Shown: in pieces, positions 3,661 to 62,966 of the stretch
Position numbering within the stretch: the first letter of the stretch is position 1
Layout of the letters: each line of letters starts with the position of its first letter
NCBI GenBank assembly: GCA_900767645.1
Contig: CAAFZY010000021.1
Span: 11,137-75,136, forward strand
Source: Alphaproteobacteria bacterium
GTDB lineage: Bacteria > Pseudomonadota > Alphaproteobacteria > RF32 > CAG-239
Reading direction: 5' to 3'
DNA length: 64,000 nucleotides
Notes under the pieces: generated by a model
What the model was told of the DNA's origin: nothing
What the model saw: the letters and a program-made list of their open reading frames with translations, nothing else
Databases searched by the model: none
Translations under genes and position numbers: made by a program

Positions 3661-4500
3661 TTAAGCCTTAAAGAAAATGAAAAAAGAACATCTGCTTTCG
3701 GAATTACATGATGAGCAAAAATCATCAATTTCTTTAACTCCGACATCTCGCAATTTGGTGCCGTTATATTTTGATAAATCACCAAGCAAAATACCGGAAT
3801 TGACAAATCCGTGAGTTGCATCGCTGTTGCCGGCGCGAATTTGTACTTCATCAATATTTTCGTGGTTTTCTTTAGCAACCGTAACCGCATTACGGCAAAT
3901 TTCAATGGAGCGCTGAGAGACGGTATTGTTTACTCTCTCCATATACCAAGCGATAAAATACTCACGGTTTTGATATACCGGCTCTAAATAGTATGTAATG
4001 CTTATGCTGTTATTAAAAATATCGTATATGCGATTGTTCTTATAAGTCATTCCGTTCGGTATCAGATTTAATTTGTAAAAAATTTCGGTACTGATTTCAT
4101 TTTCGGAAAAAGAGCGTGACAAATCAGGCCCGATTTGAATAGCGCTGTTAATTAAGCTGTTAAACGATTCCGAAAATTTGTTAAGTTTGTACTTGAACAT
4201 CGCCTTGCTGTAACCTGCAATCGCCCCGACAGATAAAACTCCAATAATGGCCAGAACGCCGAGCATTTCAACCATAGACCGACCGGCACACAAGCCGTCA
4301 TTCTCAAACTTGACCCGATAATCTGCCCCCTCACTGTCATTATCGGGCTTGACCCGATAATCCAGGTGGGACAAATTAGCTACTTGGTTTGACCTGGACT
4401 CTCCGATCAAGTCGGAGAGTGACAAGGGAGAGGTGAACACCTCTCTTACGTCGGAGCGTGACAAAGTGTGGTGTAAAAAGCGGCTGAAATTTGATTTCAT
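3661..4500 (-). CDS. type IV pilin-like protein (prepilin N-terminal cleavage/methylation-type domain), paralog A, 73-aa predicted leader
   Basis: G|RSMVEMLGVLAIIGVLSVGAIAGY: Gly at -1, Glu at +5, then a hydrophobic helix. The Cys-rich C-terminus (FCSSCNSESRC) is shared with paralogs at 18177 and 62160. Confidence 0.7.
   Translation of the reverse strand: MKSNFSRFLHHTLSRSDVREVFTSPLSLSDLIGESRSNQVANLSHLDYRVKPDNDSEGADYRVKFENDGLCAGRSMVEMLGVLAIIGVLSVGAIAGYSKAMFKYKLNKFSESFNSLINSAIQIGPDLSRSFSENEISTEIFYKLNLIPNGMTYKNNRIYDIFNNSISITYYLEPVYQNREYFIAWYMERVNNTVSQRSIEICRNAVTVAKENHENIDEVQIRAGNSDATHGFVNSGILLGDLSKYNGTKLRDVGVKEIDDFCSSCNSESRCSFFIFFKA
4340..4445 (-). repeat. chain of four stem-loops inside the leader coding region of pilin-like gene A
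   Basis: Palindromes at 4428-4445, 4398-4420, 4361-4398 and 4340-4360. They match the chain at 62216-62320. Confidence 0.75.
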
Positions 4501-4593
4501 ATTAAAAATCTCCTCAAAAAGTTAATTCTGAAAAGATTTTAGCTCGCGTTTTTTTTTTGCAATATTTACGAGTCCGTGCTGTGTATAAGTTGT
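4501..4593 (-). promoter_or_regulatory. conserved pilin upstream cassette (promoter + 5'UTR), copy A
   Basis: About 90% identical by eye to 18083-18176, 57786-57864 and 62066-62159. Contains TTGCAA, an A10 tract (T10 on plus strand, 4549-4558), TAAAAT and a GAGGAG RBS. Confidence 0.6.
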
Positions 4594-15658: not shown

Positions 15659-15737
15659 TTTTTCTTCTTGTAAAAAAATATTTTATTAATTTTAATATTA
15701 GATAGGATTGATTTTAATATTAAACAAGGAGAGAATA

Positions 15738-16925
15738 ATGTTAGGAAAAACAAATTCAAATCTTAAAAGCGCCGGTGGCGGGGCAACCGTTACCGCGGTG
15801 AATAAAACCGGCGCGGCTATCAGCTCCGGCGATAAGGTGTGGATTAACAACGGCTCGCAAGTTGCGGGCAGCCAATTGGCAGTTAATCAAGTGGCAAGTG
15901 GCGGAGTAATAGGACCGGTGATTGACCCGTCGGGAACTTTCGGTTGGTCAGCAAGCGTTAAATATTCGCTTACCGCCGATACAATTACCAAGCTAGGTGA
16001 AACTCCCGCCGGAATGAATGCGGGTAAAGTTGTTTATGGTGCCGGTAACAGTATGTTTCTTCACGGCGATACCGGTGCTCAACGTTGCGATAGTATTAAT
16101 CAATATTCACTCGGTGATTTCAGCAACCTTATCACAAATGGCAGTTATATGTTGATAGGTAACGGAACCGGTACTCTTAAAAAGATTGACTTGAATACCG
16201 GCGAAGTGCTTAAAACTTATTCAAAAACAGCTTCAAACGAAGGGTGGTATGCTTCTTTCGGTAATATCATATATTACTTTGGTTCCGGCGGAAGTACCGC
16301 TAAAAAATGGACGGTTGATGATGAAACTCTTAGCGTTACCGAAACATCTATTCCTTTTGACAACGGTGCTGTTATGTATCCGCTTGGCGTTACTGCTGAC
16401 GGAAAATATATAATATGCGGAAGACATACACAGTCAACATTTTCCACAGCCGCTTTTGTGCGCATTGTTGAGCGTATCAGTGAAGACCATCTTAAAAGTT
16501 TGCCTGAAAATGAAATACCGGCAGATTTACAGCCTTATTTCACCACTAAAAAAGGATTTATCAGCTTTAACCCCAACAACGGGGTTTTGGCAGTGGTAGT
16601 ATCGCCGACCGATTATGTTGTTATGCAATATAAAAACGGAGTTTGGCATAAGTTAAACATTGATTTGGGTTATCCTGAAAACGCAACGGGAGTTACTTGC
16701 GGTGTAAGTTTCAGCAACGATATGAATCGTTGTTCTATCGGCTATAAAGCCACAAACACCGGAACTTCCACAAATGCACATTTTGTAAACTTAACCACAG
16801 TTACCGGATATGTTGCTGTTCCGTATAAGCCTTATAATATCAGTGCTGAAACGGTAACAGGCTATGCTAAAGGTGCGGCAAGTGTTGACGGCTCGTTCGA
16901 GGCGAGCGTGGCAAGTGCTGAATAA
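15738..16925 (+). CDS. hypothetical protein (395 aa), Gly/Thr/Ser/Asn-rich, beta-rich looking, no signal peptide
   Basis: ATG preceded by an AAGGAGAG RBS. The ORF-track TTG start at 15708 was rejected. The gene has its own terminator and spot counts suggest higher GC than neighbours. Confidence 0.6.
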   Translation: MLGKTNSNLKSAGGGATVTAVNKTGAAISSGDKVWINNGSQVAGSQLAVNQVASGGVIGPVIDPSGTFGWSASVKYSLTADTITKLGETPAGMNAGKVVYGAGNSMFLHGDTGAQRCDSINQYSLGDFSNLITNGSYMLIGNGTGTLKKIDLNTGEVLKTYSKTASNEGWYASFGNIIYYFGSGGSTAKKWTVDDETLSVTETSIPFDNGAVMYPLGVTADGKYIICGRHTQSTFSTAAFVRIVERISEDHLKSLPENEIPADLQPYFTTKKGFISFNPNNGVLAVVVSPTDYVVMQYKNGVWHKLNIDLGYPENATGVTCGVSFSNDMNRCSIGYKATNTGTSTNAHFVNLTTVTGYVAVPYKPYNISAETVTGYAKGAASVDGSFEASVASAE

Positions 16926-17982: not shown

Positions 17983-18082
17983 ACTTTAAAAACAATAAGT
18001 TAGTCTCCTGTTAGACTGGATTATGAGCACCCCGCCTTCGGCACCCCTCCATAGAGGGGAATTTTAACCCGCGGCTTTAAAT

Positions 18083-18176
18083 ACAACTTATACACACCCC
18101 GGACTCGTAAATATTGCAAAAAAAAAACGCGGAGTAAAATCTTTTCAGAATTAACTTTTTGAGGAGATTTTTGATT
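18083..18176 (+). promoter_or_regulatory. conserved pilin upstream cassette, copy B
   Basis: Same cassette as copy A. The A10 tract is at 18118-18127 and a GAGGAG RBS precedes the ATG at 18177. Confidence 0.6.
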
Positions 18177-18806
18177 ATGTATACACAATCCGGTCGGTCT
18201 ATGGTGGAGATGCTTGGCGTTTTGGCGATTATCGGCGTTCTGTCAGTCGGCGCTATCGCCGGTTACTCCAAGGCAATGATGAAATACAAACTAAATCAGC
18301 ACGCTCAGGCGGTAAGTATGCTGATTAATAATGTGCTGCAGCTAAAAGGGCAACTGCAATATGAACCTGATACCGAAACATGTTATGGCGAATTGTTTAA
18401 AAAGATGAACTTACTGCCTGATGGAATAAATTATGTTACCAATTGCGGTCTGACAGAAAAGTGGTTTAACGGTAATATCAGTATTTATTATAACAACAGT
18501 CCAACAGGAACAAGGCAAAATAATTTTGGCGGGCTTATATTCAGTCTTCCGGTATCATCGCAAGGCGAGGAGATATGCCGCAATATTTTGTTTGCGGCAA
18601 AAGAAAACGCCGCTAATTTATGGCAGGTTGAGTTGGTAAAGCGAACATCAGATTCCGTCGCTATATATCCGGAAAAAGCGCTTTTAGGTAATAATTATTG
18701 CGAAAAAGGTGAAAAATGCCTAAACAATATGACCTTGAATGATACAGATGTTGCTTGCAATATATGCGATGGAGAATCATGCTCTTTGTATGTGCTGTAT
18801 GAATAA
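18177..18806 (+). CDS. type IV pilin-like protein, paralog B, short 6-aa leader
   Basis: MYTQSG|RSMVEMLGVLAIIGVLSVGAIAGY. Conserved EICRN..AKENAANL and the C-terminal CNICDGESC motif. The ORF-track TTG start at 18159 lies in the RBS region. Confidence 0.7.
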   Translation: MYTQSGRSMVEMLGVLAIIGVLSVGAIAGYSKAMMKYKLNQHAQAVSMLINNVLQLKGQLQYEPDTETCYGELFKKMNLLPDGINYVTNCGLTEKWFNGNISIYYNNSPTGTRQNNFGGLIFSLPVSSQGEEICRNILFAAKENAANLWQVELVKRTSDSVAIYPEKALLGNNYCEKGEKCLNNMTLNDTDVACNICDGESCSLYVLYE

Positions 18807-62027: not shown

Positions 62028-62065
62028 TTTTTTCTTTGCATAGTTGCCAAAAGACGGCAGTTGTT

Positions 62066-62159
62066 ACAACTTATGCACAGCATAGACTCGTAAATATTGC
62101 AAAAAAAAAACGCGAGCTAAAATCTTTTCAAAACCAACTTTTTGAGGAGATTTTTACTA
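62066..62159 (+). promoter_or_regulatory. conserved pilin upstream cassette, copy C
   Basis: TTGCAA 62097-62102, A10 tract 62101-62110, TAAAAT 62118-62123 and a GAGGAG RBS. Confidence 0.6.
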
Positions 62160-62966
62160 ATGAAATCACATTCTAGCCGCTTTTTACATCGTATATTGTC
62201 ACACTCCGGTATAAAAGAGGTGTTCACCTCTTCTTTGTCACTCTCCGACTTGATCGGAGAGTCCAGGTCAAATAAAGTAGCAAATTTGTTCCACCTGGAT
62301 TATCGGGTCAAACCCGATAATGACAGCTTATGTGCAGGGCGCAGCATGGTAGAAATGTTAGGCGTGCTCGCCATCATCGGGGTGCTGTCGGTCGGGGCGA
62401 TTGCCGGATATTCCAAAGCCATGTTCAAATATAAGCTCAATAAACAGGCGGAAAGCTTTAATATACTGCTGAATAATGCTTTACAACTGACTGAAGATTT
62501 AACCAAAACGGTAAAATCCGTTGATATTGACACTGATTTTTTTGCTAAAGCGAACTTATTGCCTGACGGTATGTACTATAAAGCCAGTAAGAATCGTATT
62601 TATGATATTTTCAACAACAAAATTGCGCTTTATTATATAAAGAACGGTTATGCAAAGGTTTATGAATATGTTTTATTGATTGATATGGAACGAGCCGGCG
62701 CTAAAATAAGTGACCGGAGCCGCGAAATTTGCCGCAACATAGCATTAACCGCCAAAGAAAACGCCGCCAATTTACATTCATTCAGAATGCGGTCTTCTAC
62801 CGAATCAAGCTACACGGAAAATACTTTATACGGGGGATTATCAACAGTTAATTATAATTTATTACAAAATGCAACAATTAAACAAATTGACGATATGTGC
62901 GCATCTTGCGACTCTGAAGTTGGTTGCCAAATTGTTATGTATCTTAACTTAATACGATATAAATAA
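62160..62966 (+). CDS. type IV pilin-like protein, paralog C, 60-aa predicted leader
   Basis: The ATG has the same spacing from the RBS as in paralogs A and B. CAG|RSMVEMLGVLAIIGVLSVGAIAGY, and a C-terminal CASCDSEVGC motif. Confidence 0.7.
   Translation: MKSHSSRFLHRILSHSGIKEVFTSSLSLSDLIGESRSNKVANLFHLDYRVKPDNDSLCAGRSMVEMLGVLAIIGVLSVGAIAGYSKAMFKYKLNKQAESFNILLNNALQLTEDLTKTVKSVDIDTDFFAKANLLPDGMYYKASKNRIYDIFNNKIALYYIKNGYAKVYEYVLLIDMERAGAKISDRSREICRNIALTAKENAANLHSFRMRSSTESSYTENTLYGGLSTVNYNLLQNATIKQIDDMCASCDSEVGCQIVMYLNLIRYK
62216..62320 (+). repeat. chain of four stem-loops inside the leader coding region of pilin-like gene C
   Basis: Stems are 62216-62231 (6 bp), 62240-62262 (9 bp), 62262-62299 (7 bp with a long loop) and 62300-62320 (8 bp). 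Confidence 0.75.

Follow-up and report, generated by a model that had tools for sequence, protein, structure and literature searches.

Why should a gene for a pilin-like protein carry a chain of DNA hairpins between its start codon and the site at which its leader would be cut off? This question is raised by a stretch of alphaproteobacterial DNA of 64,000 nucleotides (contig CAAFZY010000021.1), which is referred to here as the window. The window contains three pilin-like paralogs, named C, A and B. An earlier note on this DNA had claimed that the three genes start at one and the same ATG, spaced in the same way from a ribosome-binding site, with a leader of 6 amino acids (aa) in B, 60 codons in C and 73 codons in A, and that the additional codons of C and A consist of hairpins placed in frame. 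Our analysis makes it somewhat probable that the long segment is a genuine, translated prepilin-type leader inflated by palindromic repeat modules, of which the peptide is discarded and the frame alone is selected.

Leaders of the three pilin-like paralogs

Alignment of the paralogs confirmed the common start site. That is, a nearly identical block of about 100 nucleotides (nt) lies 5' of C, A and B, and this block consists of TTGCA(A)10CGCGAGCTAAAAT, the Shine-Dalgarno sequence (SD) GAGGAG and the ATG (Table 1). The 60 codons of C and the 73 codons of A were counted up to and including the Gly before RSMVEML, and all of them are open and in frame. Neither a further SD nor an in-frame start codon was found near the G↓R site of A and C (the arrow indicates the putative cleavage site).

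The leader of class III signal peptides is cytoplasmic and variable in length (PMC10191384). As in these type IV prepilin signals, in which a hydrophilic leader ending with Gly precedes about 20 hydrophobic residues with Glu at +5 (PMC10191384), the pilin-like proteins have Gly at -1, a hydrophobic stretch and Glu at +5, and G↓RSMVEMLGVLAIIGVLSVGAIAGY was invariant in 15 diverse homologs. The profile TIGR02532 matched the prepilin N-terminus with scores below its cut-off (13.3-15.2 against 16.3 bits). The AlphaFold 2 (AF2) model of C showed an N-terminal helix at 2-57 (57 residues) and a beta-rich head, with a predicted local distance difference test score (pLDDT) of 88.

A metagenome-assembled genome (MAG) with many long-leader pilins contains a 233-aa open reading frame (ORF) of the Peptidase_A24 family (PF01478, 63.4 bits; L050:2547-3245, minus strand; L-numbers denote related loci). 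This ORF was reached by tblastn with an approximate PilD query, and the Pfam match alone identifies it. The match covers the peptidase domain only, with no methyltransferase domain, and this fits the unusual Arg at +1. We consider it plausible from these sequence features that a type IV leader peptidase cleaves at G↓R.

The pilin-like genes also differ from those of type IV prepilins. Their leaders, which measure 60-73 aa in the window and up to about 100 aa outside it, would be made of translated hairpin DNA, and the residue at +1 is Arg, not Phe or Met. To our knowledge, prepilin leaders have a few tens of residues at most.

Anatomy and folding of the hairpin modules

The leader segment of C contains four hairpins, all of which were placed within 1 nt of the positions given in the earlier note. 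The last three form a unit that we call the class I module. Its plan is as follows: TTGTC, a 9-bp hairpin with the loop CTTGA, CCAGGT-24 nt-ACCTGG, another 9-bp hairpin with the loop TCAAR, and GACAG. The nhmmer profile of class I gave nearly equal scores on the forward strand and on its own reverse strand. Since the profile matches both strands of the module, the right-hand hairpin and its flank form an inverted counterpart to the left-hand hairpin and flank. The left-hand and right-hand hairpins are different alleles within any copy, and therefore local hairpins fold, not one long stem.

The earlier note had proposed a comparison of folding with dinucleotide shuffles. The z values of the leaders were -5.78 for C and -3.79 for A, and none of 200 shuffles was as stable as the leader in either case. 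The z value was -6.5 when the 5' untranslated region (UTR) of C was included, and it was -8.2 when the 93-nt core was folded as DNA. Within the window, sequences identical or nearly identical to hairpins 2 and 4 are confined to the A and C sites, and the chance expectation is none.

Comparing A with C, the extra 39 nt (13 codons) of A correspond to a clean 39-column gap in C, and this alignment confirms the in-frame additional unit that had been claimed for A. The leader lengths of homologs rise in 13-codon steps (46, 59, 72 and 85 aa). Hairpin 1 and the extra unit of A are members of this kind of 39-nt periodic series. The description of the stems of A and C as identical was right except for hairpin 1, in which a single compensatory pair differs (AAGAGG/CCTCTT vs GAGAGG/CCTCTC). 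The contrast with the adjacent mature codons, which are rich in synonymous differences, proved real, though it arises partly from patchy gene conversion between the paralogs.

Conservation of base pairing

We examined covariation in 31 class I copies, which had been sampled without regard to their stems. Standard pairs occupied 97.8% of the paired cells vs 84.3% after shuffling, and none of 500 shuffles reached the observed value. Changes on both sides of a pair were seen in 118 cells vs 43 in the shuffles (again 0 of 500). Compensatory changes occurred at 10 of the 18 pairs of the outer two hairpins. When the partners were slid by 1-3 columns, pairing was only 23-42%. The class I stems are a handful of perfectly Watson-Crick alleles common to several species, in which G-U pairs are rare; mismatched stems are mostly recombinants of two alleles.

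The peptide encoded by the module was not conserved. Divergence at the three codon positions was 0.19/0.15/0.16 in the module vs 0.12/0.05/0.57 in the next 35 mature codons. A flip of the module leads to a wholly different peptide, and the two readings are LSLSDLIGESRSNKVANLFHLDYRVKPDND and LSYSGLTRISRWNKFANWFDLDTPIKSECD. In an AF2 model from a 28-sequence alignment, the pLDDT of the leader was 30-36 and that of the globular head was above 90. These results show that the class I modules are nucleic-acid-level elements, not peptides. The strong covariation and the lack of codon periodicity bear out the claim of the earlier note that nucleic-acid structure is under constraint; variation biased to the third position with disrupted stems was not seen, as divergence was flat and the stems were paired.

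Template-switch mutation at quasi-palindromes is a bacterial mechanism by which one arm is copied onto the other. Either selection on a DNA-level property or such "palindrome-perfecting" mutation could account for the persistence of the stems.

Maintenance of the reading frame

The window and L001-L098 contain 127 G↓RSMVEML sites, of which 109 have complete upstream sequence. Among these 109, the leader was short (12 aa or less) at 49 sites, 13-30 aa at 8 sites and longer than 30 aa at 46 sites. The frame from SD-ATG to G↓R was intact at 103 of the 109; the remaining 6 had no clear SD-ATG, and they include two short-leader-like sites with a weaker SD and one 5'-truncated site. In 44 unique long leaders, comprising 2,632 codons, there was no in-frame stop, compared with 170 stops in the +2 frame and 180 in the +3 frame. 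The sites were discovered independently of their upstream sequence, and the stop count is therefore not circular. Of the right-hand hairpins, ATTATCGGG/CCCGATAAT is the most frequent allele, and it was never found at the left-hand position, where ATTATCGGG would read CGA TAA. These counts uphold the earlier claim that the open frame is under constraint.

The only SD and ATG lie 5' of the modules, and therefore making the pilin requires translation through them. We suppose that selection would purge copies, orientations or alleles that shift the frame or bring a stop. The modules would be filtered only for frame and for the absence of stops, because translation passes through them and the peptide is discarded.

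The long leader might instead be a functional cytoplasmic peptide or domain, or might be untranslated, with the true start downstream. The first 16 codons (MKSxFSRFLHHxLS) are indeed fairly conserved. However, the module has no codon periodicity, its flip changes the peptide completely, and its predicted structure is of low confidence (pLDDT 30-36). A or B-type sequences, moreover, offer neither an SD nor an in-frame start close to G↓R, and the absence of stops from 2,632 codons would be unexplained if the segment were untranslated. We regard this explanation as scarcely credible, and we return to that of a translated leader of which the peptide is discarded.

Distribution among gut Alphaproteobacteria

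A protein search with C gave more than 7,500 relatives, and for a few of these the source name is "type II secretion system protein". Among the best 120 relatives, most have long leaders too, in which variants of the same pieces can be recognised. When the mature part alone was used as the query against species-representative genomes, at least 549 pilin-like loci were obtained. Of the 80 loci that were retained, nearly all bear the labels of MAGs of uncultured Alphaproteobacteria or Proteobacteria, many of them gut or faecal; the exception is a bin labelled Lachnospiraceae, in which the same genes are present. The genomes of the retained sample have at least 9-24 paralogs each, and contig ends often fall just 5' of a pilin gene. 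There are several families of leader sequence, unrelated to one another. The longest leader is of about 100 aa (the 110-aa prediction for P0078 has an internal SD-ATG). The leaders longer than 30 aa are made up of hairpin modules. In the pilin family, leaders of at least 40 aa folded with z values of -3 to -10, with the exception of the weakly structured 44-aa leader of L019 (z = -1.4).

The related DNA came from the surroundings of pilin genes, to a distance of at most 10 kb on either side, or was retrieved by means of the module pattern. In the resulting 1.12 Mb, all matches of the class I profile were at the 5' ends of pilins, apart from those in a single upstream array, and hairpins of the class I type occurred away from pilins at about chance frequency. 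A stem-agnostic pattern found 18 copies in metagenome contigs, 17 of them at pilin 5' ends; 16 of the 18 are read in frame within a pilin leader that has both SD and ATG, 1 lacks the 5' part and 1 is non-coding. Among the genome copies whose upstream sequence is complete, every one is in frame. A scan of viral contigs gave no copies of the class I module. A genome-wide dispersed repeat was rejected as an explanation, because in this pilin-anchored sample both the hairpin and the profile scans put copies only at pilin ends.

Some copies have other settings. In L056 and L022, which come from short-leader species, class I-type modules form tandem arrays 5' of the promoter-like box. A non-coding class I copy (L082:7696-7820) lies about 60 nt 5' of a weakly flagellin-like ORF (Flagellin_N 17.7 bits, below cut-off) that ends at the contig end, and this copy is preceded by a good promoter-like site, TTGATT-N17-TAATAT. 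At L096:2201-2360, a module and an intact pilin N-terminus are present, and the promoter, SD, ATG and first leader codons are swapped for unrelated sequence; a silent copy that has lost its 5' end, a pseudogene or a chimeric assembly could each account for this.

Gene conversion between paralogs and strains

The C locus was compared in three conspecific strains, which share the order UDP-glucose dehydrogenase, UDG, pilin, recA. The background difference was 0-1 mismatch per 60 nt, and it rose to 5-16 per 60 nt solely across 62082-62402. This divergent stretch is the block common to all paralogs. In one strain, a further 39 nt are present, in frame.

The B locus, reached through homologs of B, served as a module-free control. 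In another strain the same genes flank a mature gene that is 99% identical, and a 73-aa class I leader replaces MYTQSG. The swap takes in about 45 nt of the 5' UTR as well. No target-site duplication was evident between the filled and the empty B locus, and the flanking 5' UTR differs too. The pattern in these alignments is characteristic of ectopic gene conversion, acting between paralogs and spanning a pair of homology blocks, rather than of clean transposition. At this locus the 99%-identical pilin has a short leader in one strain and a long leader in the other, and the modules therefore seem dispensable for the pilin. The proposal of the earlier note that the leader is a permissive site fits this finding, as well as the low pLDDT of the leader and the presence of Peptidase_A24 in the clade.

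From these observations we propose the following course of events. Modules similar to repetitive extragenic palindromic sequences and bacterial interspersed mosaic elements (REP/BIME), or to Rickettsia palindromic elements, would have colonised the leader-coding gap, which is flanked by two conserved blocks, in an expanded family of pilin-like genes. The comparisons show that the modules are gained, lost, duplicated in 39-nt steps and inverted, and that gene-conversion-like replacement between the promoter/5' UTR and the codons of the N-terminal helix transfers them between paralogs and strains. The leader peptide would be an unconstrained filler on the cytoplasmic side, cut off at G↓R by the type IV leader peptidase.

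The strain comparison bears also on the possibility of an active non-autonomous element, of the miniature inverted-repeat transposable element or the Rickettsia type, that prefers the pilin leader as its target. Such an element would agree with a palindrome of about 93 nt read in frame in either orientation, as is reported of Rickettsia palindromic elements (PMC10969869), and with the one copy outside pilin genes (L082). It does not agree with the B locus as described above, nor with the finding that copies within a genome are not nearly identical while the same discrete alleles are common to several species. Unrelated genes in the 1.12 Mb carry no copies, and no transposase turned up, the transposase content of the genomes being outside the survey. 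An active element of this kind is very improbable in our view.

Inverted copies exist. Within one contig of one genome, the whole module is inverted between L005:67-159 and L005:5343-5435, and in L005:9134-9226 the central segment alone is inverted relative to the window. These inversions, the sharp divergence hot spot around the module at the C locus and the replacement of the entire leader cassette at the B locus would be accounted for if the palindromes stall replication forks or, in the form of hairpins or cruciforms, are cut and so start gene conversion between paralogs, or if the modules are intragenic invertons, which are known from gut bacteria (PMC10028968); the window module, when inverted, would gain an in-frame TAA. 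However, the hot spot is the whole block shared by the paralogs, which would attract ectopic conversion with or without hairpins, and the module-free B allele was also hit by conversion. The orientation containing a stop was found in none of more than 60 sampled copies, with orientations compared from assembled consensus sequences only, and no recombinase was identified, recombinase content not having been surveyed. We think a recombination function of this kind distinctly unlikely. An inversion ON/OFF switch was rejected as a candidate: the flipped window module reads TAA, yet no sampled copy is in that state. The modules resemble the intragenic invertons of gut bacteria (PMC10028968) in having inverted repeats inside a gene, both orientations and a preserved frame, but the orientations of the pilin modules differ between paralogs or species only, and no OFF copy was observed.

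Two further differences between conspecific strains were noticed. After B, at a point corresponding to window position ~18824, the L104 strain has an additional complete pilin paralog in tandem (L104:3997-4620; 207 aa, MYTQSG leader), and the number of pilin genes therefore differs between strains. The 405-aa ORF at window 15708-16925 has 3-13 mismatches per 60 nt against its L104 counterpart, on a background of 0-1; the counterpart has no Pfam match, and this ORF may be another fast-evolving or recombining gene.

DNA-level or RNA-level elements

The two strands of class I fold almost equally. The mean difference between the sense and antisense folds was 0.08 kcal/mol, and the sense strand folded better in 13 of 31 copies. 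This strand symmetry, the small number of G-U pairs, the inversions and the sites 5' of a promoter-like box argue for a DNA-level palindrome over a dedicated mRNA structure. The earlier suggestion of an RNA thermosensor or other RNA-specific structure is not supported for class I by these same features. Occlusion of the start site by the module was also ruled out, as the ATG is unpaired in the fold that includes the UTR. The SD in that fold pairs with an upstream inverted repeat, which short-leader paralogs carry as well.

A second class of module, absent from the window, is an imperfect hairpin of about 100 nt (L013:10631-10939, L045:4710-5010, L062:790-889 and L076:936-1216). It has the conserved internal loops GCAGATACG / CAAGTAGRTGC and a GTGTACA..GTACAC centre. 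Class II modules are found in the in-frame leaders of other paralogs and in tandem arrays just 3' of pilin stop codons, and in both places their orientation is always that of the pilin gene. In minimum-free-energy folds, from which both the strand and the structure results for class II are taken, the sense strand folded better in 24 of 26 copies, by 8.8 kcal/mol on average.

A scan of the window and six related loci with Rfam 15 found that tRNAs alone pass the gathering thresholds, and at E <= 5 nothing credible was found around the leader.

It is conceivable that the hairpins are functional cis-acting RNA which tunes mRNA stability, translation speed or temperature response for each paralog, and that the leader hosts them because it is the sole coding stretch without protein constraint. 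Strong conservation of pairing across species, the sense-strand folding and single orientation of class II at pilin 5' and 3' ends, and the class I copy just 5' of the weakly flagellin-like gene all speak for such a role. Against it, class I has no strand asymmetry, hardly any G-U pairs and no fixed orientation, and in other species it stands 5' of the promoter-like box. Moreover, the module begins about 55 nt past the ATG, the ATG is unpaired and the SD pairs with the UTR, not with the module, and short and long leaders are interchangeable at one locus. We judge a cis-acting RNA to be rather unlikely. Taken more broadly, the idea that the modules are a working DNA or RNA device, as it were a UTR inside an ORF, that by breakage at the hairpins would seed gene conversion and diversify 10-25 or more pilin genes, or would set the expression of each paralog, is one that we entertain only tentatively.

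Several points weigh against the explanation by palindromic modules in a translated and discarded leader. Foldseek against PDB gave no match at E <= 0.001 to support a pilin fold, and the PDB-sequence profile search gave only "Fimbrial protein" at E = 0.85. We infer both the translation of the leader and the cleavage at G↓R from sequence. A sample anchored on pilin genes could miss a modest number of copies elsewhere in the genomes. Stems that are held across species beside saturated synonymous sites are also expected of a functional structure, and the sense-strand bias and fixed orientation of class II hint at an RNA-level role for that class.

Comparison with known systems

The Rickettsia palindromic elements described by Ogata et al. 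(2000, 2002) and summarised in PMC10969869 occur in many unrelated genes and in intergenic DNA. According to that summary, they are palindromes of about 100-150 nt in ORFs, they leave the frame unbroken, their peptide is tolerated, and they are read as selfish DNA. The analogy drawn in the earlier note holds in that the pilin module is palindromic, in frame and found in either orientation. It fails with respect to dispersal, which was seen neither in the 1.12 Mb nor in the metagenomes (17 of 18 copies at pilins), and in that the 5' UTR and leader are replaced together and not cleanly inserted into. The pilin module keeps to the ends of a single multigene family and to a segment that would be cleaved off, and it moves by gene conversion.

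REP, BIME and REPIN sequences are extragenic, are dispersed in tens to hundreds of copies, have a GTAG/CGTC end tag and are linked to the RAYT transposase (PMC3733652). Like REP/BIME, the modules are short G+C-rich imperfect palindromes that are grouped into inverted doublets and into tandem arrays; those arrays that belong to class II lie just 3' of genes, and class II has a conserved GTAG (CAAGTAG) in one arm. The window module differs from them in being intragenic, limited to one family and without a conserved tag; in class I, GTAG is present only in some alleles of the hairpin 3 loop. Extragenic relatives of the module are the L056 copies and the class II arrays 3' of pilin genes.

Inverted repeats without stops in coding sequence are also found in palindromic amphipathic repeat coding elements (PMC2996958) and in the coding palindromes of Nematomorpha mitochondria (PMC6649704). 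The pilin leader peptide, unlike the products of those palindromes, would be discarded and unconstrained. Both of those kinds of palindrome are reportedly part of the mature protein, with a constrained peptide.

A full-text literature search found no paper that joins prepilin leaders with palindromic in-frame elements. Each of the closest described systems shares features with the pilin modules and fails at least one defining test here.

If the leader is translated and discarded as we propose, the range of known prepilin leaders is widened several-fold, and a signal leader can offer structured repeat DNA a safe place to reside. The modules would be a natural case where frame selection and a pairing constraint separate within the same nucleotides. 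The pilin-like family is very large, unstudied and rapidly recombining in uncultured gut Alphaproteobacteria, and it is likely to be a surface-variation system. There are practical consequences as well: the shared 5' block of the family breaks metagenome assemblies, gene callers and signal-peptide predictors will mis-handle long-leader pilins, and annotators may take the leader for a domain. Should the modules be a working device, they would serve the diversification of the pilin repertoire or the expression of each paralog across a clade of human-gut Alphaproteobacteria.

Features of the window and upstream elements

Table 1. Positions of the pilin-like genes and of their upstream, leader and hairpin elements in the window.
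Feature	Position (nt)	Strand	Description	Basis
Paralog C, whole gene	62160-62966	+		
Shared upstream block	62064-62159	+	common to C, A and B	alignment of three paralogs
Promoter-like box of C	TTGCAA 62097-62102; TAAAAT 62118-62123	+	15-nt spacer including A10	
SD of C	62144-62149	+	GAGGAG; covered by inverted repeat 62119-62133 / 62140-62154	
Leader-coding segment of C	62160-62339	+	60 codons ending in G(-1); translation MKSHSSRFLHRILSHSGIKEVFTSSLSLSDLIGESRSNKVANLFHLDYRVKPDNDSLCAG	open frame from SD-spaced ATG
39-nt unit holding hairpin 1	from 62197	+	opens with truncated hairpin arm TTGTCACACTCCGG	
Hairpin 1 of C	62215-62232	+	7-bp stem	fold
Class I module of C	62235-62327	+	93 nt, two-fold-symmetric, three hairpins	
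Hairpin 2 of C	62240-62262	+	loop CTTGA; preceded by TTGTC	
Hairpin 3 of C	62263-62298	+	CCAGGT..ACCTGG	
Hairpin 4 of C	62299-62321	+	loop TCAAA; followed by GACAGC	
Mature pilin-like protein C	62340-62966	+	starts RSMVEMLGVLAIIGVLSVGAIAGYSKAM; Glu at +5	ORF
Paralog A, whole gene	4500-3661	-		
Leader-coding segment of A	4282-4500	-	73 codons	
Class I module of A	4333-4425	-	within leader segment	
Extra 39-nt hairpin unit of A	~4295-4333	-	G-U-rich stem	
Mature pilin-like protein A	3661-4281	-	stop codon included	
Paralog B	18177-18806	+	same SD and ATG; 6-aa leader MYTQSG↓RSMVEML; module-free state	

The genes around the pilins are housekeeping genes, namely those for ArgRS and ThrRS, a UDG-family gene, and those for UDP-glucose dehydrogenase, recA and an ABC transporter.

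The promoter-like box TTGCAA-N15-TAAAAT is kept in 73 pilin loci, in which the spacer is most often 15 nt. A sigma-70 consensus scan called no promoter 5' of C; the spacer of this box is outside the range of the scanner. The A tract of the box (window 62097-62123, 18114-18140 and the copy of A) varies from 8 to 12 across loci, and it can be off by one between orthologs (A10 in the window vs A9 in L099). Slipped-strand phase variation is one possible cause of this change of length, and an assembly error in the homopolymer is another.

A 15-bp inverted repeat, AAAATCTTTTCAAAA / TTTTGAGGAGATTTT, extends from the TAAAAT box to the SD in all three paralogs (62119-62154; 18136-18171; 4505-4540, minus strand). 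It folds and covaries across loci (CTTCTC/GAGAGG, CTTTTC/GAGGAG). In the short-leader paralogs of other genomes it is a perfect repeat of 19-20 bp that reaches up to the ATG, with -25 to -30 kcal/mol. Depending on where transcription starts, it is either an mRNA anti-SD hairpin or a DNA operator.

Directly 5' of the promoter block of B, at window 18026-18066, there is a 40-nt element with the hairpin GCACCCCGCCTTCGGCACCCCTCCATAGAGGGGAATTTT. An exact 21-mer of this element was found again in 9 other pilin loci, in either orientation, and in the eight loci whose positions were checked the element lies about 115-275 nt 5' of the cleavage site.

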